A stretch of 64,000 nucleotides of DNA from Candidatus Omnitrophota bacterium (GCA_016198905.1 JACQHR010000013.1:6153-70152); one strand, 5' to 3'; positions 22,023 to 56,645 are shown, numbered from the stretch's first letter. A program made the numbers and translations. The notes: generated by a model not told the origin, from the sequence alone.

Positions 22023-22027
22023 ATCAT

Positions 22028-27167: not shown

Positions 27168-27174
27168 CTAGGCT

Positions 27175-35726: not shown

Positions 35727-35778
35727 TCTTCACCTCGTTGCAGTGGATGCCCAACCACAGCTCGTACCGCATCGATTA

Positions 35779-35800
35779 GCACACAGCACACAGCACACAG
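35779..35800. repeat. GCACACA x3 perfect heptamer tandem
   Basis: Read directly, in the lysS-mntA gap. Confidence 0.85.
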
Positions 35801-35896
35801 AAAAATTGACATCAAACAGCATGTCATAAGGAACGGCAAAATGACTTTTGTTGTTCGTCTGTCCCATATGTCTAAGCCGATGTTGCAAAGACCCGC

Positions 35897-37405
35897 TCAT
35901 GAGATTTCAGGTTTCAGTAAAGGAAAAAGAATGACGTCCTTGATCGAGGGTTGGTTCAGCAGAATCATCGCGAGGCGGTCGACGCCGACGCCAAGGCCGC
36001 CGGCCGGCGGCATGCCGTATTCGAGCGCCGTCACAAAGTCTTCATCAATCACCCGCCTTTGGGGCGTGGGGCGTGGGGCGTGGGGCGTGGGAGAACTGGT
36101 TTTCCCTCGCCCCCCGTCTCCCGCCCCCTGCCCCTCTAGCTGAGCTTCGAATCGGCGACGCTGCTCGATCGGATCATTCAACTCGGAGTACGCATTCGCC
36201 ACTTCCATGCCGCCGATGTAGAGCTCAAAACGCTCCGTGATGAGTGGATTGTCAGGTTTGCTCTTGGCTAGCGGCGACAACTCCGTCCAATAATCCACCA
36301 CGAAGAGCGGTTTCGATTTCGTCTTCGGGGAAAAGAGCTGCTCGGTCAGTCGGACGAGTTGGGAGCGGTTCAGTTCCTTGACCTGCATCCCCTTGCGCTG
36401 CAGGACCGTTTGCATCTCTTCGAGCGAGGACTGCGGCGTCAACCCCATCTCTTCCATCGCCTTGGCGAATGACACGCGCTCCCACGGCGGTGTGAGATCA
36501 ATCGGCTGACCTTGATACTCACATTGGAGCGAGCCGACGAGCGTTTTGGCCGCGTCGCAAATGAGCTCCTGCACGAAGTCCATCATGAACGCGCAGTCTT
36601 GATACGCCGCGTACGCCTCGAGCATCGTGAATTCCGGATTGTGCTGCGTCGAGAGGCCTTCATTGCGAAAGCAGCGGTTGATTTCATACACGCGTTCCAG
36701 TCCTCCAACGAGCAGCTTCTTGAGATACAGCTCCGGCGCGAGGCGCAGATAGAAATCCGCATCGAGCGCGTTGTGATGCGTGACGAACGGCTCGCCCGCG
36801 GCGCCCCCGGCGATAGGATGCATCATCGGCGTTTCGACTTCGAGAAATCCACGGCGCTCCAGCGTGCGCCGCAGCGACGCCAGCAACTGGCTGCGCTGGA
36901 AGAAGACTTTCCGTACCGGCTCATTGGCGATGAGATCAAGATACCGCTGGCGATAGCGGATCTCGACGTCCTTGAGCCCATGCCACTTCTCCGGCATCGG
37001 TCGCAAGGCCTTCGCCAATATGGTAAAGCGATCCACCTGCACCGTCACTTCATCGGTCTTCGTGCGAAAGAGCGCGCCGGTCACTCCGATAATGTCGCCC
37101 AGGTCCAGCTCGCCGAAAAGTGTAAACGCCTCATCGCCCACGCGATCCTTCTTGACACACATCTGAATCTTGCCGCTGGCGTCCCGCAGATCGGCGAAGT
37201 TCAGTTTGCCCATCGTCCGTTTGGCGCAGAGGCGGCCGGCCGTGCTAACCGACTTGCCCTCGGTGAACCCCGCCACCAACGTCTGGATCGGCTCAGCCTT
37301 CGGAAACGCGGCTCCATACGGAACGATTCCTTGCCGCTCGAGCGCATGCAGCTTGTCGCGGCGGGTGCGGGCTTGTTCGTTCAGATCAGGGTCGTTGTAA
37401 GCCAT
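35897..37405 (-). CDS. lysS: lysine--tRNA ligase (class II), carrying a palindromic-element insertion
   Basis: MAYNDPDLNEQARTRRDKL..., an OB-fold, and class II motifs (FLEVETPMMH; CFRNEG; GGLGVGVDRLAM). The start is ATG 37405. The insert GQGAGDGGRGKTSSPTPHAPRPTPQRR lies between RFEAQ and IDEDFVTALEYGMPP. Confidence 0.92.
   Translation of the reverse strand: MAYNDPDLNEQARTRRDKLHALERQGIVPYGAAFPKAEPIQTLVAGFTEGKSVSTAGRLCAKRTMGKLNFADLRDASGKIQMCVKKDRVGDEAFTLFGELDLGDIIGVTGALFRTKTDEVTVQVDRFTILAKALRPMPEKWHGLKDVEIRYRQRYLDLIANEPVRKVFFQRSQLLASLRRTLERRGFLEVETPMMHPIAGGAAGEPFVTHHNALDADFYLRLAPELYLKKLLVGGLERVYEINRCFRNEGLSTQHNPEFTMLEAYAAYQDCAFMMDFVQELICDAAKTLVGSLQCEYQGQPIDLTPPWERVSFAKAMEEMGLTPQSSLEEMQTVLQRKGMQVKELNRSQLVRLTEQLFSPKTKSKPLFVVDYWTELSPLAKSKPDNPLITERFELYIGGMEVANAYSELNDPIEQRRRFEAQLEGQGAGDGGRGKTSSPTPHAPRPTPQRRVIDEDFVTALEYGMPPAGGLGVGVDRLAMILLNQPSIKDVILFPLLKPEIS
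36061..36134. repeat. GC-rich palindromic element, family C copy 2 (inside lysS)
   Basis: (GGGGCGT)x4 GGGAGAACTGGTTTTCCCTCGCCCCCCGTCTCCCGCCCCCTGCCCC. The centre GGTTTTCCCTCGCCCC is shared with the lnt copy. The left arm has become a perfect heptamer tandem. Confidence 0.85.
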
Positions 37406-37490
37406 GGAGGAGCTTTGATTATACGGCGTCGTCGAGCAACGTGTCAAAGCGAGAAGGTATTCTGTCGAAAACTCCTTCTGATAGCTACCG

Positions 37491-37598
37491 GGGCCACGGG
37501 TGACCCGGCGACGGGTCCCCTGCGCCGCCCGCAGAACCAGCGCGATAGTCGCTGGGCGAGGACGGCGCAGGGTGGCGCCGGGGCAGGCCCCGTGGCCC
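37491..37598. repeat. long hairpin element, family B copy 1 (lnt-lysS gap)
   Basis: The outer stem is GGGCCACGGG (37491-37500) / CCCGTGGCCC (37589-37598). The nested stems are CCCCTGCGCCG/CGGCGCAGGG and CCAGCG-cgatagt-CGCTGG. The 39-nt apex at 37527-37565 is identical to 46691-46729. Confidence 0.85.
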
Positions 37599-37605
37599 GC
37601 GAACG

Positions 37606-39297
37606 TTATCGAAGACGTGCTATCATCCAACCGAGGATGCCGATGAGGCAAGCCCAAGCGAACCAGTCACCCCAACGCTCATAGAGGGTGCGGGTGTAGC
37701 TCAGCGGGACATCACACGCGTGCGTGCCGGCAATGAAGAGTTCGCGACCCTGTTCATCGTGAACGCTTCCAAGAATGCGACCGGCGGGATCGATGCAGCC
37801 GGACCATCCCGTGTTGGCCGCGCGCACCACCGGCACCCGCAGCTCCACCGCGCGGAAGATCGAGGTCTGCGCGTGCTGATAGGCCGCCGCCGTCGGCCCG
37901 AACCACGCGTCGTTGGTGATGACCACCAGCATCCGCGCCCCTTCTTGGACAAACCGTCGCGCAAGCTCAGGAAACACATCTTCGAAACAGATGAGGACGC
38001 TGAACGGGGGCAAGGGGCGGGAGACAGGAGACGTGGGAAAACCGGTTTTCCCTCGCCCCTCGTCTCTCGCCCCCCGCCCCAGCACATCAGCTTCTTGCTC
38101 AATATGAAATACGGTGTGGTGATGCCCACGATCGAAGTCGCCGATCGGCGGCAACAGGCGGCGCAGCCACGGCAAGGTGCGTTCAAAGGGCACGAACTCG
38201 CCGAACGGGACCAGGTGCAGCTTGTCATAGCGCTGATCGATGACGCCGCGATGATCGACGAGTGCTGCGCTGTTGGTCATCATCCACTCCACGCCATCAA
38301 GATGTCCCATTGGAGCGCCCACCAACAGGGGTGCTTTCACCGACTTGGCAAGCGCAAAGACGCGCTGCGTGATCTCCTCATCGAGCCCGAAATAGCCCGG
38401 CACGGAAGTCTCCGGCCAGACGATGAGATCAGGCTCGGTGCGCGCAGCTTCACGCGTGAGCGTTTCGTACTGCGTCAAGATCCGCTCCTGGAACGCTTCG
38501 TCCCATTTCTCAGTTTGAGGGATGTTGCCCTGCGCCACCGCTACCCTGATCGATGAGGCATCGACGATGCTGCTGATGCGCCACGCGCCGTAGCCAAGCC
38601 CAATGAGGACGAGGATCATGACGCACGCCGCGCGAATAAGAACGGATTGTGTGCGTTTTCCGCCCCCCACCCCCCCGGCCCGCCGATTACTACCGTCGGG
38701 GCGGGCCCGCCCCCTGCCCCAAACTGTCGTGCTGATGTAGTCCGCAATCGCCGCATTCCCCATCACGATCAGGAACGATATCCCCCACGCGCCGGTCAGA
38801 TCTGCGAACTGAATGAGCGGCCGCCACGACGTCTGCGAATACGCCAGCAGATTCCAGCCCATCCCCGTGAGGACGTGGCTGCGCGCAAACTCCAGCGTCA
38901 CCCACAGCGCAGGAATCACAATCAGACTCCGGACACCAGATCTCAGACCACAGACAAACCTACCCTGATGTCTGATGTCTGATGTCTGATGTCTGACGAC
39001 GCACCAGCCGAAGATCCCGAAATAGAGCGCGAGGTACGCGCACAGCACGAGCCACCCGACGACGGTGACATAGATCAGCCACCACATCGAGCCGAGGAAG
39101 AACAGTGCACCGATGAGATACGACCACCAAAACGCCGCGCGCGATGACGTCGTGCGCAACAGCAACAGCCACGGAACGAAAGCAATCCACGCGCACCAGG
39201 GCTGATTGAAATTCGGAAATGACAGGACGAGCAGGATGGCGCTACTGAGCGCCGGCAACAGAGGACGAACGATGCGGGACAAACGACGCGTGGTCAA
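37606..39297 (-). CDS. lnt: apolipoprotein N-acyltransferase, carrying three repeat-derived insertions
   Basis: N-terminal multi-TM region plus a CN-hydrolase domain with E/K/C motifs (VWPETSVPG; YDKLHLVPFGE; VLICFED). The suggested start is TTG 39297, which overlaps the upstream stop (TTGA). The ORF-track Met at 39393 would overlap the upstream gene by 100 nt. Confidence 0.85.
   Translation of the reverse strand: MTTRRLSRIVRPLLPALSSAILLVLSFPNFNQPWCAWIAFVPWLLLLRTTSSRAAFWWSYLIGALFFLGSMWWLIYVTVVGWLVLCAYLALYFGIFGWCVVRHQTSDIRHQGRFVCGLRSGVRSLIVIPALWVTLEFARSHVLTGMGWNLLAYSQTSWRPLIQFADLTGAWGISFLIVMGNAAIADYISTTVWGRGRARPDGSNRRAGGVGGGKRTQSVLIRAACVMILVLIGLGYGAWRISSIVDASSIRVAVAQGNIPQTEKWDEAFQERILTQYETLTREAARTEPDLIVWPETSVPGYFGLDEEITQRVFALAKSVKAPLLVGAPMGHLDGVEWMMTNSAALVDHRGVIDQRYDKLHLVPFGEFVPFERTLPWLRRLLPPIGDFDRGHHHTVFHIEQEADVLGRGARDEGRGKTGFPTSPVSRPLPPFSVLICFEDVFPELARRFVQEGARMLVVITNDAWFGPTAAAYQHAQTSIFRAVELRVPVVRAANTGWSGCIDPAGRILGSVHDEQGRELFIAGTHACDVPLSYTRTLYERWGDWFAWACLIGILGWMIARLR
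38006..38080. repeat. GC-rich palindromic element, family C copy 3 (inside lnt; 75 bp)
   Basis: GGGGGCAAGGGGCGGGAGACAGGAGACGTGGGAAAACCGGTTTTCCCTCGCCCCTCGTCTCTCGCCCCCCGCCCC. This is an imperfect palindrome centred on AACCGGTT. Confidence 0.85.
38660..38720. repeat. GC-block palindromic element, family D copy 2 (inside lnt)
   Basis: CCGCCCCCCACCCCCCCGGCCCGCC-gattactaccgtc-GGGGCGGGCCCGCCCCCTGCCCC. Confidence 0.7.
38923..39000. repeat. inverted heptamer arrays (CAGACNN / TGATGTC) inside lnt
   Basis: Left array at 38923-38957: cagactc cggacac cagatct cagacca cagacaa. Right array at 38966-39000: tgatgtc x4 perfect, then tgacgac. The module is 78 nt (26 codons) and the frame stays open. Confidence 0.85.
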
Positions 39298-39935
39298 TAG
39301 CTCGACGAATGTTGCAATTGCTGTTGCGACTTCCAGACGCCATACCCGACGAGCGATCCCCAGATCGCGCCATGCAGCACGCTGAAGTACCACGGCTTAA
39401 ACGCGAGCCACCACCAGAACGATCCGGCGCATCCGCTCACGGCGCCGATCAGGACATGTGTCAGTAACCGCCGGCTCTTCAACAGGCCGCACGCCGCCGC
39501 GAGGAGTACGAACACCGATCCCGCGAGTCCAAAAGCTTGGAAGAGCGTCCACAGCGTTTCGAGCTCGAGCCGAAACGGCCACAGCGCCCGCAGGATGTCT
39601 TCTCGAGACAACCCAGCGATATCGCCAGACCAGAGTTTGACGGAACTGACATAGAGGCTAATCGGAATATAGGGAATCCATCCGCAGATGATGCCGCTGA
39701 CCGGCACACCCACCCATCGCATCCAGAGAGGTTTCTTCGAAAGCCTTGCGGCGAGTCCCACGCCCACGAGGGCCAGCAATGCGCCGTGGGCCGCTCCCGC
39801 CGGCACGATGTGCCAAGTGAACTGCCCACTAAACACGTCCGACGGCACGGGAAACTTGGCATAGCACCACCACGCATTGATCGCCCCACCCACTCCGCCC
39901 ATCAATCCGATCAGACCAAGCGCACGAGCTCTCAT
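39294..39935 (-). CDS. hypothetical multi-pass membrane protein
   Basis: 213-aa ORF with about 6 hydrophobic segments. It is co-directional and tightly packed with its neighbours. I recognise no motif. Confidence 0.5.
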   Translation of the reverse strand: MRARALGLIGLMGGVGGAINAWWCYAKFPVPSDVFSGQFTWHIVPAGAAHGALLALVGVGLAARLSKKPLWMRWVGVPVSGIICGWIPYIPISLYVSSVKLWSGDIAGLSREDILRALWPFRLELETLWTLFQAFGLAGSVFVLLAAACGLLKSRRLLTHVLIGAVSGCAGSFWWWLAFKPWYFSVLHGAIWGSLVGYGVWKSQQQLQHSSSY

Positions 39936-39960
39936 CGGTGGGCCTTATTCCAACCACCCG

Positions 39961-39997
39961 CACGCCAGCACGTCTGCACGTCTACACGTATGCACGG
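39961..39997. repeat. octamer array (CACGTCTN family, same units as 10273-10335)
   Basis: cacgccag cacgtctg cacgtcta cacgtatg cacgg. It lies in the secA-downstream gap. Confidence 0.8.
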
Positions 39998-39999
39998 TT

Positions 40000-42900
40000 C
40001 TATTGCCCATGACACTTCTTGTACTTCTTATTGCTACCGCACGGGCAGGGCTCGTTGCGACCGACTTTGGGGCCTGTGTGTTGCGTTGGACTTCGAGGCT
40101 GGAGGCTGGAGGCTGGAGGCTGGAGGCGTTTCTCCGAAGCTTGGAGCCTGGAGCCTGGAGCCGAACCTATTGGAAGCGTTGATGCTTCATCAGTGAGAGG
40201 AGCGGGAATGAAGCGCGCGGCTTCCGAGGCCTCGGGATGGACTTCTTGCACCGGCGTTCTAGCGAACACGCTGACAGGGCGCGCCTCAGCCGCAACGGGC
40301 TGTACACGCAACAGCATCGTCAGCGAATCCAGCTTGATGGACTCGATCATCACTTGAAACAATTCGTGGGCTTCGCGCTGATATTCGACGACGGGATCGC
40401 GCTGGCCGTAGGCGCGCAAGTGGATGCCTTCGCGCAACGCATCCATCATGTAGAGATGGTCTTTCCATTTTTGATCCATGATCGAGAGCAGGACGGTGCG
40501 CTCCAGCTGCGCCATCATCTCCGGGCCGATCGAGACCCGCTTCGCCTCATAGGCCTGCTCGAAGGCGTGCGTGATGGCCGCGCCAATGGCGTCGCGGTCT
40601 GCGATCGTCGCTTCTTCGCCGAGCGTCACCATGAACTGGCGGCCGGCGGCTTCGCGCAACCCGGCGAGGTCCCAGGCATCCGATCGCAGTTCGTTGGAGG
40701 CAAACGTGCTAAGCAGGCCATCGGCGACCTCTTTGATGATTTCGCGGACAAGACCCTGGAGGTCCACTCCTTCGAGAATCCGACGGCGCTGCTCATAGAT
40801 GACCTCGCGCTGCCGGTTCATCGTGCTGTCGTACTCGACGAGTTGTTTCCGGATATCAAAGTTGTGGCCCTCGACGCGCCGCTGCGCGGTCTCAATGGCT
40901 TTCGAGACCATCCCGTGCTCGATCGGCAAGCCCTCTTCCCATTTAAACCACGGCAGCTCCATCAGCTTCGCGATGCGATCCGAGCCGAAAATGCGCATCA
41001 AATCATCTTCGAGGGAGAGATAAAACCGCGAGGATCCCGGATCGCCCTGACGGCCGGAACGACCGCGCAACTGATTGTCGATGCGGCGCGCCTCATGGCG
41101 CTCGGTGCCGAGCACGTGCAGGCCTCCGACAGCGACGACTTGTTCGTGTTCAGACTCGCAGAGTTTCTTGAATCGCTCGACGATGGCGTGCCGCTCAGTC
41201 TCCTCCAGCGGGGCTTGGCGCTTCTCTTCCTCGGCGCGGATGGCGTCATCCGCCAGCGCTTGAGGATGGCCGCCAAGGAGAATGTCGGTGCCTCGTCCGG
41301 CCATGTTGGTGGCGATCGTGAGCGCGCCTTTGCGGCCGGCCTGGGCGACGATGTGCGCTTCATGCTCATGATATTTGGCGTTGAGGACGTTGTGCGGCAG
41401 CCCGGCCTTGATGGTCGCTGCGGTCTGCACGAGACGCACGATGTCCTCGAGCCTGAAGATGAGCGTCGACTTGGGCGCCTCGCGCTTGAGTTGCGCCAAC
41501 CACTCGCCGACTTGCGCATCCGTGAGGGTCGCCGGCCGCGCGAGTCCTTGTTCAAGCGACGTGCGCAGCGCGTCGCCGAGCGATTCCTTCTTCAGCTCCT
41601 CCAGCGTCCACTGACACACCGTGCTCAACCGCTTCATGATGGGGCCGGGCTCTTTCAGGAACCGCGAGAGCCGCTCGGACTTCTCGATCGAGATCGTGCC
41701 GATGAGCACCGGCTGTCCGGCGCGGTAATGACTGACGATTTCCTGCACGACCGCGAGAAATTTCTCATCCTCGGTTTTATACACCGTATCCGCAAAGTTG
41801 GCGCGGATGAGCGGGCGATTGGTCGGGATGGCCAAGACGTCGAGCTGGTAGATCGTGCTGAACTCCTGCGCTTCGGTGGACGCGGTGCCGGTCATGCCGG
41901 CGAGCTTTTCGTACATGCGGAAGTAATTCTGAAAGGTCACCGAGGCCAGCGTTTGATTCTCTTCGCGAATCCGCACGTTTTCCTTCGCCTCGATCGCTTG
42001 ATGGAGCCCATCGCTCCAGCGCCGTCCCGGCATCAGACGCCCCGTGAACTCATCCACGATGATGATCTCGCCGTCCTTGACCATGTAGTCCACGTCGCAT
42101 TTGAAGAGCTCGTGCGCGCGCAGCGCCTGATTGATGTGATGCACGAGGCGCATGTTCATCTCGTCGTAGAGATTGCCGACCCCGAGCAGCTCTTCGCAGT
42201 GCTTGATGCCCTCTTCCGTGAGACTGACACCTTGCTCTTTCTCATCCACTTCGTACTCCGCGCCTTTGTTCAACCGGGCGACCAATTTATCCAGCTTGTA
42301 GTAGAGCTCGGTCGACTCTTCGGCGGGGCCGGAGATGATGAGCGGTGTTCTGGCTTCATCGATCAAAATGCTGTCGACTTCATCCACGATGGCATAGTGG
42401 TACTCACGTTGGACGAGATCTTCGAGGCGAAACCGCATGTTATCGCGCAGGTAGTCGAAGCCGAACTCGTTGTTCTGCCCGTAGGTGATATCGGCCGCGT
42501 AGGCCTCTTTGCGCGGCACCGGCCGCAGGTGCATAAAGCGCTCGGCCGTCTGCGTCCAGGAGGGATCGTAGAGAAAGGAGAGCGACTCTTCTCCCGGTCG
42601 CCGCTCAGCCGGATCCACACCCTGGATGACGCCGAGGGTGAGCCCCAGCGCGTGATAGATCGGCCCCATCCAGCGCGTATCGCGGCGCGCAAGGTAGTCG
42701 TTGACCGTCACGATGTGCACACCGCGGCCCGTCAGGGCGTTGAGATACGCAGGCAGGGTCGCCACGAGCGTCTTGCCTTCCCCGGTTGCCATCTCCGAAA
42801 TCTTGCCCTCGTGCAGCACCATGCCGCCCATGAGCTGCGTATCGAAGTGCCGCATGTTCAGCACCCGTCGGCTCGCCTCTCGCACGACCGCGAAGGCTTC

Positions 42901-43197
42901 CGGCAGGATCGTACCGAGCGCTTTCTGCTGAATGGCGCGCCGTTGCTTTCTGAGCTCAAGCCGCTCGTCATGATCGCGCTCGTACCATGCCGGATCGGCC
43001 GGTGTGAGGAACGTGTGAGTCGTCAGCTGTTCGCGAAGCCGCACGCGGAATTCGTCGGTCTTCGCCCGCAACTGGGCATCCGAGAGCTTCTGAATCTCCG
43101 GCTCGAGCCGATTGATGCGCTCGACCGTCGGCCAGAGCCGCTTGCGCGCCCGCTCGTGGTGCGTGCCGATCACTTTCTGAACAATCCAATTGACCAT
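40000..43197 (-). CDS. secA: preprotein translocase ATPase SecA
   Basis: 1065 aa. [20 protein letters not shown] (Walker A), [19 protein letters not shown] (DEAD), and the C-terminal zinc-binding tail [14 protein letters not shown]. Confidence 0.95.
40094..40158. repeat. two heptamer arrays (GGAGGCT x4; AGCCTGG x3-4) inside the secA C-terminal linker
   Basis: First array at 40094-40121: cgaggct ggaggct ggaggct ggaggcg. Second array at 40131-40158: agcttgg agcctgg agcctgg agccgaa. Confidence 0.85.
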
Positions 43198-43198
43198 A

Positions 43199-43230
43199 CT
43201 GTGTGCTTTCTGCTTAGTGCTGTGTGCTGG
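43199..43230. repeat. heptamer array (CTGTGTG family) spanning the prfB stop / secA start gap
   Basis: ctgtgtg ctttctg cttagtg ctgtgtg ctgg. Confidence 0.8.
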
Positions 43231-44360
43231 ATTGCGCTTTCCACTTCAAATACGCTTCCATGAAGGGATCGAGTTTGCCCTCGAGCACCGCCTGCGCGTT
43301 TCCCGTCTCATGCTCCGTGCGATGATCTTTCACCATATTATACGGATGCAGCACGTAGGAGCGAATCTGCGAGCCCCACTCGATTTTCTGTTTGGACTGA
43401 TACTCCTTGGCGGCTTGCTCTTCCTTTTTGCGTCGTTCGAGATCCGCTAAGCGCGCTTTGAGCACGTGCATCGCTTTGGCTTTGTTCTGCAGCTGGGAGC
43501 GCTCGTCCTGGCATTGCACCACCGTCCCGGTCGGCACGTGCGTGATGCGCACCGCCGAGTCGGTGGTATTCACCGACTGGCCGCCTTTGCCGCCGGAGCG
43601 GAAGACGTCGATGCGCAGGTCGCCTTCGTTGATTTCAATCGGCGCGTCTTCATCGGCTTCCGGGACGACATCAATCGAGACGAAGGAGGTGTGGCGGCGC
43701 TTGTTGGCATCGAAGGGTGAAATCCGCACGAGCCGGTGCACCCCTTCCTCGCTCTGGAGATAGCCGTAGGCGTACGGGCCCTTCACGATGACCGTCGCAC
43801 TCTTAACACCGGCTTCTTCGCCCGGCTGCAGGTCGATGAGTTCCGTCGAAAACCCGCGTTCATCCGCCCAGCGACGGTACATCCGCAGCAGCATCTGCGC
43901 CCAGTCGCACGATTCGGTGCCGCCCGCGCCTGAATGGACTGTGAGGATCGCATGCTTGCCGTCGACCTCGCCGCCGAGGAGCCGCTGAATCTCGAGCTGC
44001 CCAAACTGCGCCTCGAGCTTGGTGATGTCTTGGGCCAGCTGTGCCAGTGAGGATTGATCGTCGCCATCGATGATCCCGAGCAACTCGGTGAGGTCGCGCA
44101 GCCCCTGCTCGAACTGGTCGATCGGTGTGCGCTGCGCTTTGAGGGTTTTCAGGGTTTGGATGGTCTTGTTGGCGCGGTCCTGATCGGACCAGAAGTCGCC
44201 CTGCGCCATCGCCTGCTCGATCTCGGTGATGCGAGCGGTGATCGCCTCGAGGTCAAAGATACCTCCGCAGTTCGGTCCAGCGCTGCTGGAGCACGGAAAG
44301 GCGATTGCGCAAGTCAACGAGTTGGTCCGGAACCTGAGATGGCGACATTGAGAGAAGCAT
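43214..44360 (-). CDS. prfB: peptide chain release factor 2 (requires programmed +1 frameshift; join 44360..44256 and 44254..43214)
   Basis: Frame 0 from ATG 44360 reads [35 protein letters not shown] then TGA. The +1 frame continues DLEAITARI...FWSDQ... and contains SPF and GGQ (GGKGGQSVN). Confidence 0.92.
44252..44266 (-). promoter_or_regulatory. RF2 programmed +1 ribosomal frameshift site (internal SD-like GGAGG + CUU UGA C)
   Basis: The minus strand reads CGG AGG TAT CTT TGA CCT. GGAGG is at 44266..44262, CTT at 44258..44256, TGA at 44255..44253, followed by C. Confidence 0.9.
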
Positions 44361-44390
44361 CAGTGTAACACGGGCGGTCGTGCGGAACAA

Positions 44391-45872
44391 TCACGCGTTC
44401 GCTGGGGGCTGAGCGTGTGATGCGGTGAGGCGCTGTTCCTTGTCGGCCAACACCTTCAGGAAGGCCTCGACGACGGCAGGATCGTACTGCACGCCGGCGA
44501 ACTTCTGTAATTCCGCCTTCGCGTCCTCAACGGTCATGCGTTTGCGATACGGGCGGTCGGTGACCATCGCGTCGTAGGTATCGGCCACGGAGAGAATGCG
44601 CGCGCCCAACGGAATGGCGTCTCCTTTGAGTCCCGCGGGATAGCCTGCCCCATCGTAGCGCTCGTGGTGATGGCGGACCAGGGCGACGACGTTCTGCAGC
44701 GACCGCACCGGCTTGACGATCGCCTCACCGATGATCGGATGCTGCTGCATGATCTTTTGCTCATCGTCGGTCAGCGGAGTGGCCTTTAACAGGATCTCGT
44801 CCTTGATCCCGATCTTGCCGATGTCATGAAGGATGCCGGCGTTGGTGAGGACGCGCAGGGTATCTTGATCCAATCCCATCACTTCGCCGATCTTGCTGGC
44901 GTAGAAGCCCACACGCTTCGAATGCCCGGCGCTGTAGGGATCTTTGGCCTCCACCGCCAGCGCCAGCGCCATGATGGTTTCGATGTAGGTGCGTTCGACG
45001 TCAAGGTTCAACCGATAGTTTTCCATCGCCACGGCGATCTGCGAGCCGATGCTCGTCACGAGCGATTCGTCATCTTCGGTAAACGGCTTCGACGCGTCGG
45101 TGCGTAGGACGGTGATGACGCCAATGGCGTGTTCGCGCAATTTCAGCGGCACGCTGAGCACCGCGCCGTCTTTGCCATGGCCGCTGCCGAACCCAAGGGC
45201 TGCGGGACTGCTCGTGGCTCGCATCGCACGGCCTTCCTTCGCCACCAACCCGGCAATGCCCTCTCCCAGCTTGAGGCGCGGTGTTTGATCGGGCGGTGTG
45301 GCTGGCCCATTCAGCGACCAGCCCGTCTTGATGTACAGTTCCTGCTTTTCCCCATCCACCAGCATGAGGCTGCCCATTTGGGCCTCGAGGGCCACCGCCG
45401 CGTTCTCCACGATCAGCGTCAGGAGGTTATCGATGCCTTCGTACGACACGATCGCCGTGCCGATGCGGGAGAGGAGCTTCTTGACCAGCTGGCGCGAGGA
45501 TTCGAGCTCGTCGATCTTCTGTTCGAGCTCATGGGTGATCCGGTTAAACGCGCGAGCGAGCTCTCCGATCTCGTTCTGTTCGGTCACTTCAATCTTGCCG
45601 GGCAGCTCCCCATCGGAGAGCGCGGCCACTTTGGCGGTCACCTTCAAGACCGAGCGCACCATGGGCCTGGCAATGGCGAAATACCCGATGAAGGCCGAGC
45701 CCACGATAACGCAGATGGCGATCCCCCAATTCAGCCCGTGGACCATCGCCCAGATGACGAGGACGGGAATGAAGACCATGAAGCCAAAAGCGAGAGCGAG
45801 CTTGTACTCCAGCCGCTCCTCCGCGGGACGTTTGCGCGGCGCGGGCTGTGGCATCGTGGATGACGTTGTCAT
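44391..45872 (-). CDS. membrane-bound HAMP-GAF-HD-GYP domain protein (putative c-di-GMP phosphodiesterase)
   Basis: TM helices, then a HAMP-like segment and a GAF domain. The HD-GYP domain shows HSKRV, LHDIGKIGI and HHERYDGAGYP. The start is ATG 45872 (MTTSSTMPQ...). Confidence 0.85.
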   Translation of the reverse strand: MTTSSTMPQPAPRKRPAEERLEYKLALAFGFMVFIPVLVIWAMVHGLNWGIAICVIVGSAFIGYFAIARPMVRSVLKVTAKVAALSDGELPGKIEVTEQNEIGELARAFNRITHELEQKIDELESSRQLVKKLLSRIGTAIVSYEGIDNLLTLIVENAAVALEAQMGSLMLVDGEKQELYIKTGWSLNGPATPPDQTPRLKLGEGIAGLVAKEGRAMRATSSPAALGFGSGHGKDGAVLSVPLKLREHAIGVITVLRTDASKPFTEDDESLVTSIGSQIAVAMENYRLNLDVERTYIETIMALALAVEAKDPYSAGHSKRVGFYASKIGEVMGLDQDTLRVLTNAGILHDIGKIGIKDEILLKATPLTDDEQKIMQQHPIIGEAIVKPVRSLQNVVALVRHHHERYDGAGYPAGLKGDAIPLGARILSVADTYDAMVTDRPYRKRMTVEDAKAELQKFAGVQYDPAVVEAFLKVLADKEQRLTASHAQPPANA

Positions 45873-46107
45873 GTTCTGCGCTCGTAGCGTTATATGAAGA
45901 GTGACGTGGAAGAGGGCAGGCTCGGAACCTGCCCTCCTAAGAAAAAGTATACCTGAGGTTGCGGAACGCCGACGCAACTCTATGAAAAATTATGCAACAG
46001 CACGTCCCGCTAAGGGATTGTGCGAGGACTCAAGGAGGAGTAAGACAATTCCGTAGTGGTCACGTGTGGCGGGTGACACCTCATGAGTTGCGCGCCATCG
46101 GCCCGGA

Positions 46108-46254: not shown

Positions 46255-46295
46255 CGGCAACATGTAGAGCCTCTCGGCAGGTTTGTGGGATGAAG

Positions 46296-46607
46296 CTAGT
46301 GTTCCTTCCATCCTTCGGCGTATAACAAGGCGCGCTTGCGAGCCAGACCCCGCGCATAGCCGCCAAGCGTTCCGTCTGAGCGCACGACGCGATGGCACGG
46401 GATGCAAGGCGCAAAGGGGTTCTGGTTCAGCGCGTTCCCGACGGCCCGCATGGCGCGCGGGCGGCCGATCTGCCGAGCCACCCACTGGTACGACCGGGTT
46501 TCGCCTTTCGGAATGCGACAAATCGCTCGGTAGACCTGCTGCTGGAACGGCGTCAATGATCCCCACGCGACGCGAGAAACTGTCCTTGGCGGTGGAAGCT
46601 GTCTCAT
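46296..46607 (-). CDS. ogt: methylated-DNA--protein-cysteine methyltransferase (stand-alone DNA-binding/active-site domain)
   Basis: MRQLPPP...TPFQQQVYRAICRIPKGETRSYQWVA...NPFAPCIPCHRVV contains the PCHR active site. ATG 46607 is preceded by GAGGAGGAG. The 218-aa ORF-track version extends through the upstream hairpin element and is too long. Confidence 0.85.
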   Translation of the reverse strand: MRQLPPPRTVSRVAWGSLTPFQQQVYRAICRIPKGETRSYQWVARQIGRPRAMRAVGNALNQNPFAPCIPCHRVVRSDGTLGGYARGLARKRALLYAEGWKEH

Positions 46608-46623
46608 GATGCGTCTCCTCCTC

Positions 46624-46792
46624 GTGTCCCGAGTCAGAAATCCGTTCATCAACTGCGGAGCGGGTGGCACGGCGGAAGTCCCCTTCGCCCGCCCGCAGAA
46701 CCAGCGCGATAGTCGCTGGGCGAGGACGGGTGAAGGGTCCGCCGTGACAGGACCCGCCCAGGGATTGGTCGCGAATCTCTGACTCAGGACAC
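46624..46792. repeat. long hairpin element, family B copy 2 (uvrC-ogt gap)
   Basis: The terminal arms are GTGTCCCGAGTC (46624-46635) / GACTCAGGACAC (46781-46792). The nested stem is CCCTTCGCCCG/CGGGTGAAGGG. The apex is identical to copy 1. Confidence 0.8.
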
Positions 46793-48315
46793 TAGCGTGC
46801 GTGCAAACGCTGCAGAATCGTTTCGGCCAAGGCGCGGGAGCAGCGACCGGCCCGCGCCACGTCCTCCGCAGAAGCTCGCCGAAGTCCCTCCAACGATCCA
46901 AACTCTCGCAGCAACCAGAGCTTGCGCCGCGGCCCGACACCGGCAACTGCATCCAATGCCGACGCGGTCACGGCACGCTGCCGTCGCTGACGATGAAAGG
47001 TGATGGCGAAGCGATGCGCCTCGTCGCGCACGTGTTGCACCAAATGCAGGACCGGCGACGTCGGCAGCAGCACGACCGGCTCTTGCGACCCTGGCAGGAA
47101 GATCTGCTCGAACCGTTTGGCCAGTCCCATGATCGGCAGTGTCAGCGAGAGCGCCGTCAGCTCTTCGCACGCTGCCGCCAATTGCCCTTTGCCGCCATCA
47201 ACAAGAATCAGATCCGGCAGCGGCAGTTCCCCGGCCCGACCTTCACGAGCGCCGCCCGCCCCGGCTTTCGATCCAGGCGGGCCGGGGGGGCGGGCGGTCG
47301 CCAGCGATCCACTATAACGCCGCCGGATCACCTCGCGCATCATCTGGTAGTCATCTCCGCCGTAGGCGGATCCGCCTTTGGCGGAGATGCCCTGCGCCGT
47401 TTGAATCGTAAAGCGCCGATAGTGCGCCTTGTGCGGCTTGCCATCGACAAACACGACCATCGAGCCCACGGCGAAGTCGCCGAAGATGTTGGAAATATCG
47501 AAGGCCTCGATGCGGCGCGGCAACTGCGGCAATGTGAGGGCAGCCTGCAGCTGCTCGAGCGGGCCGGCAACGAGCGATTTCTCTTTCGCGACGATGATGG
47601 AGGTGAGGGCTTGGATTTGATCGCGTACTCGAGCCGCCTCCTCAAATCGTCGATGAGACGCGGCCTGCGTCATGCGCCGCGACAGATCCCGCAGCAGCCG
47701 CTCGCGCTTGCCCTCGAGAAACGCCACGAGGTCATCGACCATCCGCTGATAATTCTGCGGCGTCACGTAGCCCACGCAGGGGGCCAAGCACTGGCCGAGA
47801 TGATACTCGAGGCACGGGCTCTTCGGGAACGTCTTGCACGTGCGCATCGGAAACACCCGGCGCAGAAACCGCACCGCCTGATGCATGAGGGTCGCTTCGG
47901 TGTACGGACCGAAGTAGTGTGCGGCGTCGTCGAGCTTGCGCCTGGCCACCACAAGCCGAGGGAACGGTTCGTTCGTGATCTTCAGCATCGGGTAGCGTTT
48001 ATCGTCGCGGAAGGTCACGTTGTAATAGGGGGTGAGGTCTTTGATGAGCTGGGCTTCGAGCAGGAGGGCTTCGGCTTCCGACGCGGTTTGGCGCGTCTCG
48101 AGATCGGCCACCATCGTCATCATCCGTGCGATGCGGGGACTGAGGAGGGGGCGGGCCGTGCGAAAATACGAGGCGACGCGCTTGCGCAGGCTCAGCGCCT
48201 TGCCGACGTAGAGCAGCCGGCCCTGCGCATCGCGAAACAGGTAGACGCCGGGCTGATCCGGAAGATGCGCTACTCGCCGGCGAAGACTTGAAACACCGGC
48301 AGTTTGCCCAGCCAT
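46792..48315 (-). CDS. uvrC: excinuclease ABC subunit C, carrying a GC-palindrome insertion
   Basis: LPDQPGVYLFRDAQGRLLYVGKA (GIY-YIG), a UVR domain (FEEAARVRDQIQAL), an RNase H-like region and a (HhH)2 C-terminus. The start is ATG 48315. The insert SLATARPPGPPGSKAGAGGAREGRAGE lies before PDLILVDGGKGQL. Confidence 0.9.
   Translation of the reverse strand: MAGQTAGVSSLRRRVAHLPDQPGVYLFRDAQGRLLYVGKALSLRKRVASYFRTARPLLSPRIARMMTMVADLETRQTASEAEALLLEAQLIKDLTPYYNVTFRDDKRYPMLKITNEPFPRLVVARRKLDDAAHYFGPYTEATLMHQAVRFLRRVFPMRTCKTFPKSPCLEYHLGQCLAPCVGYVTPQNYQRMVDDLVAFLEGKRERLLRDLSRRMTQAASHRRFEEAARVRDQIQALTSIIVAKEKSLVAGPLEQLQAALTLPQLPRRIEAFDISNIFGDFAVGSMVVFVDGKPHKAHYRRFTIQTAQGISAKGGSAYGGDDYQMMREVIRRRYSGSLATARPPGPPGSKAGAGGAREGRAGELPLPDLILVDGGKGQLAAACEELTALSLTLPIMGLAKRFEQIFLPGSQEPVVLLPTSPVLHLVQHVRDEAHRFAITFHRQRRQRAVTASALDAVAGVGPRRKLWLLREFGSLEGLRRASAEDVARAGRCSRALAETILQRLHAR
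47229..47298. repeat. GC-block palindromic element, family D copy 3 (inside uvrC; inverted relative to the tsaE copy)
   Basis: CCCCGGCCCGA-ccttcacgagc-GCCGCCCGCCCCGGC-tttcgatccag-GCGGGCCGGGGGGGCGGGCGG. Confidence 0.75.
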
Positions 48316-49926: not shown

Positions 49927-49951
49927 GGTGGCTCTTTCAGGAGGACACACA

Positions 49952-50221: not shown

Positions 50222-50224
50222 GCC

Positions 50225-52829: not shown

Positions 52830-53774
52830 TCAGAGATGCTGGAAAAGAGGAATGACCAGCAGCAGCCAGGGGATGGCGACGAGGGTCGTGAAGAGCCAGA
52901 GGGCGTTGGAGAGCTTGCGGTCAAGGCCAAACAGCAGCGGCAGCACCAGCGGCGAGACGGCGACGGGGGTCGCGGCTTCGAGCAGCACGATCGTGCGCGG
53001 CAGCCCATGGATCTGAAACAGATTGAGGAGCATCCACGCCACGAGCGGCGTATACAAGCATTTGATCCCGCTCATCACGACACACGAACGCAGCCACGGC
53101 CGCGGCGACGCCACGGTCAGTTGCGAGCCGATCGCGGTTAAATAGAGGCTCGTATCAACAGGGATGAGGACGTGATTGAACCATTCAAGCGGCATCGGAC
53201 GCGGCACGCGCGCCAGATTCAGTGCGACGCCCACGAGCATCCCAAGGAACGGATAGAGTCGCAGGTCATCGTTATAGGCTTTGCTGAACGTCGTCGGTGT
53301 GGCCGGATGGCCGTAGCGCGACGCGACCCAAAACCCCAGCGTGTAGAAACAGGGCGTGAAGAACACCAGATACAACATGCACAATCCGTAGCCGGCCTCG
53401 CCGAACAGCGCAAACGCGGTAAAGGCACCGAGGTACCCGACGTTGGAGAACAACGCGCACGTCAGAAAGCTGCCCATTTGGGGATTGGTCAGCTTGGCCT
53501 GTTTCGCATAGAGGAGGGCCGGCAGCAGTGTCGAGAATGAGATGAGCAGCCCAAGCAACGGCAGCAGCCACGGCTCGAGGCTGTGTAGATTCATCCGCCA
53601 GAACGAGAGGCACAACACCGTCGGTGACGTGATCCTCACGACGAATTGGACCAGTCGATAGGCGCGGGCTTCCGTCAGCGCCCCGCCACGGTGCAGCCAC
53701 CAGCCCAGCGCGAGCGAGCCCAGAAATAATCCGAGTCCGAGTTGCAATCGAAGCAGCATCAGGCCATGTGACAT
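52830..53774 (-). CDS. multi-pass membrane transporter, AEC (auxin-efflux-carrier)-like
   Basis: 314 aa with about 10 hydrophobic segments in a 5+5 arrangement. The family assignment rests on size and topology only. Confidence 0.45.
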   Translation of the reverse strand: MSHGLMLLRLQLGLGLFLGSLALGWWLHRGGALTEARAYRLVQFVVRITSPTVLCLSFWRMNLHSLEPWLLPLLGLLISFSTLLPALLYAKQAKLTNPQMGSFLTCALFSNVGYLGAFTAFALFGEAGYGLCMLYLVFFTPCFYTLGFWVASRYGHPATPTTFSKAYNDDLRLYPFLGMLVGVALNLARVPRPMPLEWFNHVLIPVDTSLYLTAIGSQLTVASPRPWLRSCVVMSGIKCLYTPLVAWMLLNLFQIHGLPRTIVLLEAATPVAVSPLVLPLLFGLDRKLSNALWLFTTLVAIPWLLLVIPLFQHL

Positions 53775-53824
53775 GAAACGGTTGCGTGACTGGCAATTTA
53801 TTGTAGGGACTCTTGCGGACGATA

Positions 53825-54106
53825 ACTAGTATTCCGTCCAGATGGAGTTGCGTGATGGGGCTTGGTCAGTGTGGCGGGTGACGCGCAGCCAGGTCCCCTG
53901 CGTCCGCCCGGAGTTGCCGGTCGCCGCAGGCGGCGGCTGTACGGCCGCCCGGCGACGAGGACGGACGCAGGGTGGCGAAGCGGGCCGTCGCCTCACGGCT
54001 TCCGGCACTCCCGTCGGCGACCACGCCGCTGAGGCGGCGCGGTGCCCGCCTCGGTCGCAGGCCCTGCCACACGGATCCATCACAGCAATGCTGACGGAAC
54101 ACTAGT
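53825..54106. repeat. long hairpin element, family B copy 3, with 14-bp terminal inverted repeats
   Basis: The terminal repeats are ACTAGTATTCCGTC (53825-53838) / GACGGAACACTAGT (54093-54106). The internal stems are CAGTGTGGC/GCCACAC and GTCCCCTGCGTCCGCCCG.../...GAGGACGGACGCAGGG, homologous to copy 1 with one extra compensated base pair. Confidence 0.8.
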
Positions 54107-54233
54107 CGCGTCCGACTGGAACAACCGGTAATGTCCTATTTTGATGTGATTCCACCGATGGCAGAACGGATTTCACCGATCACTCCATCGGCGGAATCTG
54201 GTTTCGCAATCTGTGGAATCACAGCTAAGGACA

Positions 54234-56645
54234 CTACCGAACAACCAAGATGGCTTTGCGGCCTTTGAAGGTGCGCAGGTGAAGGCGGGTTCCATCGGTA
54301 CGCAGAGCCATAGCGCCGTCGGTGCGGGTCGAATAGAGGCGAGCGCCGGCGGCTTCGAGCGCGTGGACCGTATCGGCGGATGGCAAATGATGAAGACGGC
54401 CGACGCTGAGAAGTGCGACCTGCGGATGGACCGCGTTGAAGAATGGCGAGCCGGCCGCGCCGAGGCTGCTGCCATGATGCGGGACTTTGAGCACGGTCGA
54501 CCGTAAGGGAGCATCCGTGCGCAACAACCAGGGGGCTCCGCGCGCTTCAAGATCGCCGGTGAGCAAAAGAGTCACGGAGCCCTTCGTCAGCTTCAGGACG
54601 ATCGAATTATCATTGGACGTCGGCGCGGTGCGCGGCACGAAGCCATCAGGCGGATGCAGCACGTCGATGGTCACGTCTGACCCGTCGGTGAGCCGCAGCC
54701 CCGCGGTCACGACGCTCTCTGGCACATGGCGCGCGGCGACTAACGCGTAGAGCGCGCGCGTGGTCGCGGTGCGACCCACCGCCCCGTTGGTGAGGAGCCG
54801 CTTCACGCGCATCTGCTGAAGGATCGGAATGGCGCCGCCGAGATGGTCTTCGTCCGAGTGCGTGAGCAGCAGCGCATCGATCGTCGTGATGCCCTCGCGT
54901 CGAAGAAATGGGATGAGCCGATAGCGGCCGGCCTCCTGCGAGCCGGCGTCGATGAGGATCGTCGAGCCTCGCGGCGTGCGGATGACCATGCTGTCGCTGT
55001 GGCCGACATCGAGCAGATCAAGGCGCAGCCAGCGCGAGTCCCATGCGCGACGCATCACGCCGCTCCATGCCCACAGCGTCGCTGCGGCAAGCCAACAGAT
55101 CGCCACGCGGCTGGCCCGGCAACGGACGCGGCGCCGAACGACCGACAGCATCACCAAACCGTAGTAGACGAGCAGCCACCACACGGACGGGTGCGCGACC
55201 CAGAAGTGGCCGCCAGGAATGCGCTGACACCAACAGACGATCCAGACGATCAGATCCAGCAGTATCCTCAACACTCCAGCCATCCACTGAACGACCGGAG
55301 CCCATATTGTCCCCGCGATGAGGATCAGTGTCCCGCATGCCACCAGCGCGCTGACCAGCGGCGCCACGAGCAGGTTCGCGAGAATGGCAATCGGCGACAC
55401 CAGGTGGAAGTACCACGCGAGCACCGGCGAGAGTCCCACCCAAATGGCCGTCGTGGCCGCCACACTCACCGCCAGATATCGACGCAGCCATTCCGGACGC
55501 AGCCAGTTCACACGCGCCTGCAGCCAGTGCGCCCACCGCGCGCAGAACACGAGCAAGCTCAGGACCGCGCCGAAGGAGAGCTGAAACCCTGGATCGAACA
55601 GCTGCGTGGGATTGATGAAGAGGATCGCGAGTGCGGCGGCCGCCAGTGTATTGGGCCACGAGATGACCCGATCAAGCCACAACGCTCCCAAGACCACCCA
55701 TGCCATGATCGTGGCGCGCACCACCGGCGGTTGCATCCCCGTCAGCATGCAGTAGCCGATGAGTCCAATGCCGGACACGAGCACTCGCACGCGCCACGGC
55801 AGCCCGAGCAGACGCAAGACCGTTTCGAAGAGGAGCGCGATGAGCCCGACATTGAAGCCGCTGATGACCACCATGTGCATGGTGCCCGTCTCGATGAACG
55901 CATCTCGCAATCGATCATCGAGGGCCACGCGCTCGCCAAGCAGGAACGATTGCAACAACCCCGCACGTGAGGGCTCGAACGTCGCTTGGATTGCCTGCTC
56001 CCATCGATGGCGAAGTTGAACAACCGCAGCCACCCACGGCCAGCCTCGACCCCGACGAAGGACGGCGATCCCGTGAAAAGGCCGCACGCGCAATAGTACG
56101 TGAATGTGCTGACGGGCAAGTGCTCCGCGCCAGTCGTATTGGCCGGGGTTGGTCGCCGCCGGCACGCGCGACCACTCCCCTTCGACCACGATCTCATCGC
56201 CGTACGCCAGGAGCATTCGCGGCGATTGAATCGTGGCGCGCACGCTTGCATCGATCGCCTCCCAACCCGCATCCCTGCGGCGATCGCGCACGCGCACGAG
56301 ACAGGTCAGCGCATCTTCGGGTGGTCGCTGGGGATGCGGCGGCACAGGGGTTGGGTCGCTGACGATCACGCCATACAGACGAACGGCTTGCGCCTCGTCG
56401 GCCACGAGGCCTTTGAGCTGTTCCGCGGGATGCGCCCTCCACATCCCCACGCGGCTGACTCCAAGACACATCCACAGCGCCAAGAGCGCGGGGACTCTCA
56501 ACGAGGGATGACCACGCATCGTCATCGCGATGATGCCGCCGAGCAGCCCAAGGATGACTACGACCACGGAAGGAACAGGCGTGAGCGTGCCCAGGATGAT
56601 CCCTACGATCACGGCAAGCGTGATAGGAACAAGTGGAGATCTCAT
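54234..56645 (-). CDS. comEC: DNA internalisation competence protein ComEC/Rec2
   Basis: 803 aa. It has an N-terminal OB/DUF4131-like region, a multi-TM competence domain and a C-terminal metallo-beta-lactamase domain (DVGHSDSMVI...LLTHSDEDHLGG). Confidence 0.88.
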   Translation of the reverse strand: MRSPLVPITLAVIVGIILGTLTPVPSVVVVILGLLGGIIAMTMRGHPSLRVPALLALWMCLGVSRVGMWRAHPAEQLKGLVADEAQAVRLYGVIVSDPTPVPPHPQRPPEDALTCLVRVRDRRRDAGWEAIDASVRATIQSPRMLLAYGDEIVVEGEWSRVPAATNPGQYDWRGALARQHIHVLLRVRPFHGIAVLRRGRGWPWVAAVVQLRHRWEQAIQATFEPSRAGLLQSFLLGERVALDDRLRDAFIETGTMHMVVISGFNVGLIALLFETVLRLLGLPWRVRVLVSGIGLIGYCMLTGMQPPVVRATIMAWVVLGALWLDRVISWPNTLAAAALAILFINPTQLFDPGFQLSFGAVLSLLVFCARWAHWLQARVNWLRPEWLRRYLAVSVAATTAIWVGLSPVLAWYFHLVSPIAILANLLVAPLVSALVACGTLILIAGTIWAPVVQWMAGVLRILLDLIVWIVCWCQRIPGGHFWVAHPSVWWLLVYYGLVMLSVVRRRVRCRASRVAICWLAAATLWAWSGVMRRAWDSRWLRLDLLDVGHSDSMVIRTPRGSTILIDAGSQEAGRYRLIPFLRREGITTIDALLLTHSDEDHLGGAIPILQQMRVKRLLTNGAVGRTATTRALYALVAARHVPESVVTAGLRLTDGSDVTIDVLHPPDGFVPRTAPTSNDNSIVLKLTKGSVTLLLTGDLEARGAPWLLRTDAPLRSTVLKVPHHGSSLGAAGSPFFNAVHPQVALLSVGRLHHLPSADTVHALEAAGARLYSTRTDGAMALRTDGTRLHLRTFKGRKAILVVR

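Follow-up and report, generated by a model that had tools for sequence, protein, structure and literature searches.

Family B, a probable MITE-like repeat family of Omnitrophota with a covarying hairpin core

Three long palindromes at gene junctions in a stretch of DNA from a Candidatus Omnitrophota bacterium (64,000 nucleotides in full length, hereafter the window) belong to one repeat family, here called family B. We consider it probable, at roughly three chances in four, that family B consists of small non-autonomous MITE-like transposable elements of Omnitrophota and related groundwater bacteria. This reading is based on terminal inverted repeats, 9-bp duplications, an intergenic location in either orientation and empty sites. 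The elements are small (below ~500 bp) and non-coding, they have terminal inverted repeats and a duplication of fixed length, and they occur as dispersed copies that show presence/absence. Within the window, the only trace of the MITE terminal repeats is a remnant at the left end of the first copy, the other two copies having other outer inverted repeats, and the window copies are assigned to the MITE on the basis of core homology and of empty sites in relatives. An earlier note, made from the sequence of the window, had listed MITEs among several options; 15-nt terminal inverted repeats, 9-bp duplications and three sites that are empty in syntenic relatives now speak for that option.

The three copies, c1 (37488-37602), c2 (46621-46795) and c3 (53824-54107), all lie in one orientation, on the plus strand of the window. 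Their sequences read as the earlier note had described them, and each folds as RNA into a single long nested hairpin, with an MFE of -82.9 kcal/mol for c1 (z -4.9), -108.8 kcal/mol for c2 (z -7.8) and -166.5 kcal/mol for c3 (z -5.9); for every copy, 0/200 shuffles were as good. The 39-nt apex that had been called identical in the first two copies (GCCCGCAGAACCAGCGCGATAGTCGCTGGGCGAGGACGG; 37527-37565 in c1 and 46691-46729 in c2) is an exact match without a single difference, and over 20 copies found in other genomes and in metagenomes have it unchanged. The window contains two occurrences of its 19-nt core, against a chance expectation of 0.03. Over the 96-98 nt compared outside the apex, the identity of c1 and c2 is 78% in an ungapped and 84% in a gapped alignment. 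The stem pairs quoted for the three copies were also correct, differing from copy to copy yet remaining paired, with one G.T wobble in the stem of c2. The third copy, c3, keeps the same shell as c1 and c2 and, as had been noted too, has its apex swapped for another hairpin, 45 nt long and GC-rich (53911-53955), and it carries in addition an extra 74-nt module (53984-54057).

About 28 relatives were added by exact-word scans of public genomes and metagenomes. Species-representative genomes scanned with an exact 22-nt apex word yielded three copies from three MAGs, of which two carry the label Planctomycetales and one the label Omnitrophota, and metagenome contigs scanned with an exact 19-nt apex word yielded 42 loci, of which ~27 are true members and the others chance matches in coding sequence. 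From an RNAalifold alignment of the cores of 21 relatives we built a covariance model, R1, which recovered 27 full copies with E values from 2e-22 to 5e-5. Because most relatives were gathered with the exact 19-nt word, the sample is biased to one subfamily and the invariance of those 19 apex nucleotides is by construction; in the wider family the apex hairpin varies, as seen from the copy at L028:3328-3443 and from c3.

The canonical element is 150-225 bp long (150-285 bp for all elements including the window copies) and non-coding. Its ends, defined on 13 relatives in which both are present, are 15-nt terminal inverted repeats of the form TGCTCTGTCGAAAAG(C) ... (G)CTTTTCGACAGAGCA. Inward from the terminal repeat follow a short linker, stem P1, a GUGAC junction and stems P2, P3, P4 and P5, so ordered that the interior forms a ~115-nt irregular hairpin of five stems. 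P1 is a variable 10-bp stem, P2 a 6-bp stem (GCGGNG/CNCNGC), P3 a second variable stem (CCCC-NNNN-CC / GG-NNNN-GGGG), P4 a stem with two bulged A residues and P5 the apex hairpin; the internal loops GUGAC / GGCAGGM and CCGGGG / GGUGG are conserved.

All three window copies match R1 (c1, 101 bits, E 2e-17; c2, 108 bits, E 7e-19; c3, 39 bits, E 2e-5), and the model, also with its filters off, found no further family B copy in the 64-kb window. In c1, the R1 match and the fold together define the structured core, one long irregular hairpin with stems P1-P5 (37488..37602, plus strand; apex at 37527..37565, recognised by its identity with c2 and other copies). On the expected side of this core, 15 nt outside it, lies a putative remnant of the left terminal repeat (TATTCTGTCGAAAAC, 37458..37472, plus strand), which agrees with the consensus TGCTCTGTCGAAAAG at 12/15 bases and is separated from the core by a linker longer than in canonical copies. 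Taken alone, a match this good is expected by chance in the window, and it is its placement and surroundings that lend it credibility. On the other side, weak likeness to canonical right ends suggests a possible decayed right terminal repeat at 37606..37622 (the GTTATCGAAGACGTGCTA region, plus strand), a stretch that includes the stop codon of lnt (TAA, minus strand, 37606-37608).

By its fold, c2 is a palindromic element over its whole length (46621..46795, plus strand) with an outer inverted repeat of its own, GTGTCCCGAGTCAGAAATCCG / CGAATCTCTGACTCAGGACAC, around a structured core at 46652..46766. The whole of c3 (53824..54107, plus strand) is likewise palindromic by its fold, with the outer inverted repeat ACTAGTATTCCGTCCAGATGG... 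/ ...CCATCACAGCAATGCTGACGGAACACTAGT; its pairing may extend to 53817-54115. The shell of its core runs from P1 GTGTGGCGGG to CCCTGCCACAC (53859..54072, plus strand; the R1 match covers 53866-53997, and the 3' end was set by eye from CAGGCCCTGCCACAC). Reading of the sequence places the alternative 45-nt hairpin at the site of the apex, flanked by a conserved GCCCG and CGAGGACGG, and the extra plus-strand module, a nested pair of hairpins inserted at GCGG^CAGG, is the same as one found in L044, L020 and L023. Two ORFs of 85 and 87 aa across c3 have no Pfam match, and coding for a small protein was dropped, the ORFs being regarded as artefacts of the GC-rich palindrome.

Compensatory changes keep the core paired, and its loop and bulge motifs are conserved. 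RNAalifold predicted the same long irregular hairpin for the 21 cores on both strands. In the 27-copy alignment, which was fitted to the model and holds sequences related to one another, paired cells make up 97.1% of all pair cells (shuffles, 89.9 +/- 0.5%), and 16/38 pairs show changes in both partners, where shuffles give 6.2 +/- 1.3 and 0/500 of them reach 16. Moving the partners by 1-3 columns as a slid control left only 0-6 two-sided pair changes. The variation sits mainly in the outer half of P1 and in the middle of P3, and the mean major-allele frequency is 0.89 at unpaired loop and bulge positions and 0.88 at paired ones. Conserved loops together with covarying stems indicate that the fold itself is constrained. 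The stem covariation that the earlier note had read from three copies is thus statistically solid on 27.

Signs of mobility come from the ends of the relatives and from the sites themselves. Direct repeats of 9 bp border 9/13 copies with both ends, seven of them identical at 8-9 of 9 positions and two after a 1-nt shift (examples are GGACAGTAC, CTTGATCGC, GGAAGGACC, GCTCGGGTC, GGACGGTTC and CCAGTGATG), and these target-site duplications point to recent insertion. On one contig, L028, two oppositely oriented copies are separated by 1.6 kb, and the second combines a variant apex with a perfect 9-bp duplication. No clear target duplication was found at c1, c2 or c3. The 20 flanking ORFs tested are all unrelated housekeeping genes, including those for L25, Pth, PgpA, FtsA, HtrA, GAPDH, AccA, LexA and BipA, and there is no transposase or recurring partner gene among them.

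In the window, all flanking genes of c1-c3 are on the minus strand (Pfam), and the gene order is lnt - c1 - lysS, uvrC - c2 - MGMT-like gene and ComEC - c3 - Mem_trans permease. At c1, the upstream gene is lnt (apolipoprotein N-acyltransferase, 37606..39258; Pfam LNT_N, CN_hydrolase), whose stop codon is 3 nt from the end of the c1 core, and the downstream gene is lysS (35897..37405; Pfam), for which a promoter scan found a perfect TTGACA-18-TATAAT (37447..37418, minus strand) that is kept in relatives; c1 thus has the lnt stop codon on one side and the lysS promoter on the other. At c2, the element fills the exact gap from the uvrC stop codon (TAG, 46792-46794; uvrC at 46792..48315, Pfam) to the ribosome-binding site GAGGAGGAG of the MGMT-like gene (46296..46607, start codon at 46607; Pfam DNA_binding_1). 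At c3, the upstream gene is ComEC-like (54234..56612; Pfam Competence, DUF4131, Lactamase_B) and the downstream gene encodes a Mem_trans permease (52830..53774; Pfam). Each copy is upstream of the promoter or ribosome-binding site of the next gene. The description of the copies as lying immediately after stop codons therefore stands for c1 and c2, which adjoin the upstream stop, and fails for c3, which begins 128 nt past the ComEC stop. A T-box or lysine riboswitch for lysS was discarded: the lysS promoter lies downstream of c1, and the contexts of the remaining copies are unrelated.

The same junctions are compact in syntenic relatives. The uvrC-MGMT junction is 184 nt in the window, a 4-nt overlap in L091 and 15 nt in L087/L092; the ComEC-permease junction is 459 nt in the window, 1 nt in L091 and an overlap in L092; and the lnt-lysS junction is 200 nt in the window and 2 nt in L091. 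By the R1 model, the syntenic relatives with compact junctions have no family B copies. As synteny is preserved in these relatives, the empty sites are to us the most telling evidence of mobility. The LysS and UvrC proteins of the window have 100% identical counterparts that NCBI assigns to a Candidatus Omnitrophica MAG, and in the closest relatives of the host the orthologues are 71-79% identical. When the same organism was assembled independently from short reads, the assembly ended within c2, at the border of the shared apex; a multi-copy repeat would be expected to cause such a break.

Taken as MITE-like, an element of family B would duplicate 9 bp of its target on insertion, and this duplication would imply that it is mobilised in trans by a transposase making 9-bp staggered cuts. 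The three window copies would be insertions into operon junctions, probably older or variant ones in which the canonical ends have decayed (c1) or have been replaced (c2, c3) while the cores stayed intact. The fold may be selected as a single-stranded nucleic acid, either for propagation of the element or as a harmless or mildly useful hairpin at the 3' end of host transcripts.

A parent or autonomous element, or a transposase with matching ends, was not found by a mismatch-tolerant terminal-repeat search of the window and all collected loci; the terminal-repeat searches of these sequences matched MITE copies only. Two scans of viral contigs (terminal repeat; conserved junction motif) returned 38 loci with 0 family members by the model, so the family does not appear to be phage-borne, and a distant blastn search of a plasmid collection gave one chance match, within a coding gene. 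A check against known RNA families, which the earlier note had proposed, matched none: Rfam had no match in the whole window at the gathering score, and at E<=10 around c1 it returned only an 11.9-bit RNaseP-T fragment that we take as chance. We found no MITEs or palindromic repeats of Omnitrophota or Planctomycetes described in the literature. Retron msr/msd, integron attC and bridge or omega RNA were also set aside: no reverse transcriptase, integrase, IS110 or IS605 gene was seen beside the copies, the 20 neighbours tested all have housekeeping functions, and terminal repeats and target duplications mark the family.

Could the hairpins instead be a cis-acting RNA element of the host, that is, a 3'-UTR stabiliser, insulator or terminator kept for regulation, with mobility incidental? 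In 13/15 co-directional gene pairs, as called by our own ORF scoring, the copy is closer to the upstream stop than to the downstream start; the hairpins are highly stable on either strand, their pairing is kept through compensatory changes, and the cores of c1-c3 are intact despite decayed transposon ends. We nevertheless regard this as unlikely. Relative to Pfam-verified neighbour genes the copies have no orientation bias (7 same, 11 opposite), and such random orientation argues against a strand-specific RNA function in the 3' UTR; the option of a 3' mRNA stabiliser thus finds no support as a directional effect, though most copies are nearer the stop. The terminator option fares no better: there is no T/U run after any of c1-c3 by direct reading, so none is a canonical intrinsic terminator, and a terminator scan of 37000-55000 reports no site at c1-c3. 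The junctions are empty in syntenic relatives, where genes overlap and are presumably co-translated, the target-site duplications indicate recent insertion, and c2, which splits a formerly overlapping uvrC-MGMT pair, looks like tolerated damage and not like regulation. On the MITE-like reading, the bias to sites after stop codons most likely marks places where insertions are tolerated in a compact genome, the relatives having overlapping genes, and not targeting. REP elements are linked to RAYT transposases, and REP/BIME-type repeats (REPINs) moved by a RAYT tyrosine transposase would also give GC-rich intergenic palindromes near gene 3' ends; relative L084 has small CCACGG/CCGTGG hairpins in its lnt-lysS spacer. 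To our knowledge, neither REP/RAYT nor IS200/IS605-type transposition makes a target duplication, whereas family B has 9-bp duplications together with 15-nt terminal inverted repeats, which leaves this origin highly improbable. REP units, as described in PMC3733652, are 20-40 nt long with a GTAG/CGTC head; the units of family B measure 115-280 nt, as the earlier note had recognised in calling them much longer, and no such head is visible in c1-c3. The REP/BIME option is accordingly given up.

Two further readings concern the fold more than the position. One would have the ~115-nt core be the functional unit, either a discrete structured RNA or an ssDNA hairpin bound by a dedicated protein; selection would act on one of its strands, and the shells that carry it would be exchangeable. 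Covarying stems are interspersed with conserved loops and bulges, optional hairpin expansions sit at fixed positions, as in many structured RNAs, and the core occurs in at least four different shells. The plus strand also seems favoured: in that orientation there are 43 G.U cells in 13 columns and 6 A.C cells in 5 columns, the plus strand gives the more stable fold in 24/27 copies (by a mean of 3.6 kcal/mol), and R1 scores c2 at 108 bits on the plus strand and 17.5 bits on the minus strand. This preference is suggestive, many of the cells being inherited from few changes and the orientation to host transcription being random; moreover, P4, which has bulged A residues on the plus strand, would be closed at these points by invariant G.U pairs on the minus strand. 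Against such a module, no Rfam family was found beyond the chance RNaseP-T fragment, a scan found no sigma-70-like promoter inside c1-c3, neither promoter nor terminator was seen on reading the canonical copies by eye, and no recurrent partner gene is found beside the copies; as a rival to the MITE-like reading it seems to us quite improbable. The other reading holds that a neutral palindrome is kept paired at the DNA level, by arm-templated correction (template switching or fold-back repair) or by gene conversion, without selection on the fold. The outer layers of c2, c3 and L003 are palindromic too although their sequences are unrelated, and L016 and L027, probably orthologous copies, differ by one whole stem variant, which suggests conversion between copies. 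Yet loops and bulges, for which the opposite arm offers no template, show the same degree of conservation as the stems, and G.T persists across many copies while A.C is rare, which symmetric correction would not yield. A process of this kind has a low probability, and it would account for the pairing only and not for the origin of the element, so that it is compatible with the MITE-like reading.

Among known systems, family B most resembles bacterial MITEs, reviewed for instance with the Correia/NEMIS elements of Neisseria (PMC3184786, PMC2229807, PMC10969869). Like these, it is small and non-coding, has terminal inverted repeats and target duplications, would form a long hairpin if transcribed, and occurs as many dispersed intergenic copies in both orientations with presence/absence between relatives. 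Unlike these, it has an unrelated sequence and a duplication of 9 bp instead of the TA of Correia elements, its interior is far more structured, is more conserved than the ends and outlasts the canonical ends, and no parent insertion sequence was found for it in the window and collected loci. The nearest case is bcr1 of the Bacillus cereus group, a MITE-like, transcribed repeat with 5-bp direct repeats and a structure kept by compensatory changes (Delihas 2011, PMC3184786). Both are mobile repeats (~155 bp for bcr1) with short direct repeats and an RNA structure preserved through compensatory pair changes; bcr1, however, has 5-bp repeats and a cruciform of two stem-loops, whereas the repeats of family B are 9 bp and its single long irregular hairpin has apex modules that can be exchanged. 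The two have no sequence similarity.

ERIC/IRU elements are 127-bp imperfect palindromes of enterobacteria, found in transcribed intergenic regions and thought to act at the RNA level (PMC3184786). Family B shares with them the form of a long imperfect palindrome between genes in either orientation, but ERIC is confined to Enterobacteria and Vibrio and has its own consensus; judged from the description of ERIC, by which family B is set apart, the likeness raised earlier is an analogy at best. With REP/BIME, family B has in common GC-rich extragenic palindromes concentrated past stop codons, and it differs in its 115-nt core, its element length of 150-285 nt, its 9-bp duplications and its lack of the head. 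Intrinsic terminators, too, are GC-rich hairpins downstream of a stop codon; family B differs in having no U run and stems 5-10 times longer, and in that c2 sits within a gene pair that overlaps in relatives.

The kind of element is thus already known from bacterial MITEs, bcr1 especially, and what is new is the Omnitrophota host and the constrained modular core. Omnitrophota are uncultured and known almost solely from MAGs, and for this phylum a repeat family is a concrete and well supported gain. Repeats of this kind break assemblies, as in the short-read assembly that stops in c2, and their insertion widens intergenic regions that in compact relatives are overlapping junctions. They also reshape gene ends: the putative right end of c1 holds the lnt stop codon, and c2 adjoins that of uvrC. 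The interior hairpin is conserved and covarying beyond what is typical for selfish repeats, so that family B lends itself well to asking whether selection on MITE hairpins serves the transposition of the element or acts through the transcripts of the host. If these are ordinary MITEs and nothing else, the value lies chiefly in annotation and in the covariance model.

The core itself comes in at least four outer shells, namely the canonical terminal repeats, a diverged left end common to L016 and L027, and the separate outer inverted repeats of c2 and of c3, both of which are loosely like the canonical repeat (TGYTCYGTC...). Canonical ends are absent from L003, L010, L019, L036, c2 and c3, and in L010, L019 and L036 the core has no recognisable shell at all; the core could therefore move or persist independently of the terminal-repeat shell. 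The two-hairpin module (51-74 nt, ends ...CACTTCC...CTCGGTCG) has G^CAG as its insertion site. Both c3 and L044 carry it in the right arm, L023 has it reversed, and in L020 it occupies the apex site, at which L024 has a different insert. Nested insertion was rejected as the source of the stem variation, since nesting alone would not yield the alternation of conserved and variable layers that is seen at fixed positions. Read boldly, these arrangements might mean that the core is a self-standing RNA or ssDNA module, acting in one strand with an activity of its own or bound by a protein, which is carried in interchangeable shells with mini-hairpins at G^CAG and which outlasts decayed transposon ends at operon junctions. 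We hold this to be unlikely; if true, the PVC superphylum would have a mobile structured element of a new class.

Another repeat family in the window, family A (20560-20790 and 46057-46290), is relevant to this modularity. Its second copy lies between the MGMT-like gene and an HD-GYP gene, which are ~320 nt apart in the window and 48 nt apart in L091. The suggestion that A and B are modular relatives was borne out in part: the R1 model of family B does not detect family A, whose interior is longer and different, but the two families have in common the P1/outer stem and a GGGTGAC/GGGTCGC junction, and the apex is swapped in family A too, its hairpin differing between the two copies. The left flank of c3 that had been seen to recur beside the second family A copy does so as GTGTGGCGGGTGAC, at 46064-46077 and 53859-53872.

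The window holds a third repeat family besides families A and B, a GC-rich palindromic element of ~88 nt with the pattern GGGGCGTGGGGCG...AACCGGTTTTCCC...CGCCCC. Two of its three copies lie within open reading frames, one inside lysS (36060-36148) and one inside lnt (38006-38094), while the third (27174-27246) is intergenic. The lysS copy encodes a 28-aa insert, GQGAGDGGRGKTSSPTPHAPRPTPQRRV, that sits in a loop of LysS; in relatives, the same loop carries other low-complexity inserts whose DNA is likewise palindromic. The peptide encoded by the lnt copy, EGRGKTGFPTSPVSRPLPP, is similar to the LysS insert. The situation resembles that of the Rickettsia palindromic elements, which are in-frame. 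The window's UvrC contains a low-complexity insert of 22 aa, TARPPGPPGSKAGAGGAREGRA, at residues 339-360 (~47236-47301) that is missing in four relatives, and comparison with the Lnt of the relative L084 revealed two further inserts in the window's Lnt (residues ~92-115 and 178-205). These three inserts may represent additional in-frame insertions of GC-rich repeats.

The spacer between lnt and lysS, which in the window carries a copy of family B (the hairpin-forming, MITE-like repeat), also contains a perfect σ70-type promoter (TTGACA, 18 nt, TATAAT; 37418-37447, minus strand) just upstream of lysS. This promoter is kept in L084 and in a second relative, L091, where it lies within the 3' end of lnt. 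The L084 spacer (9586-10000; 415 nt) lacks family B but contains a longer palindrome together with several small hairpins of another type, CCACGG...CCGTGG. Thus, the palindromic repeats at this one junction differ from lineage to lineage.

Family A folds into long branched hairpins at 20560-20790 and 46057-46290 (z -6.7 and -3.3, respectively) and has its outer stem and a GGGTGAC/GGGTCGC junction in common with family B. The apex hairpins of its two copies differ, and that of copy 1 (CCAGCACTAATTTTC...GAAAATTGGTGCTGG) was found again at positions 1790-1830 of L003, a locus from outside the window that carries family B. Copy 2 fills the gap between the MGMT-like gene and the HD-GYP gene, a gap of only 48 nt in L091.

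Nested in family B copies is a two-hairpin module of 51-74 nt, present in the window at 53984-54057 and in three loci from elsewhere (L044, L020 and L023). It consists of a hairpin, CACTTCC, a second hairpin and CTCGGTCG, and shows covariation within its own stems. Its insertions lie at G^CAG sites of family B, at two distinct positions and in either orientation. Perhaps the module is a tiny mobile element in its own right.

At the uvrC junction, a Logan short-read contig with an identical uvrC (L086) stops 57 nt into the family B copy (L086 1921-1977), at the point where the sequence of this copy starts being common to other copies. Assemblies typically break in this way at multi-copy repeats.

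More than 10 intergenic sites in the window carry tandem 7-nt repeats of the type AGCACAC/GTGCTNT (families D1-D7), for example 3457-3601, 6514-6626, 8660-8736, 9699-9783, 22014-22173, 35769-35804, 43195-43231, 51506-51601 and 59219-59372. Similar short tandem repeats (AATCAGC, GAAAATAAGT) adjoin the family B copies of L023 and L040.
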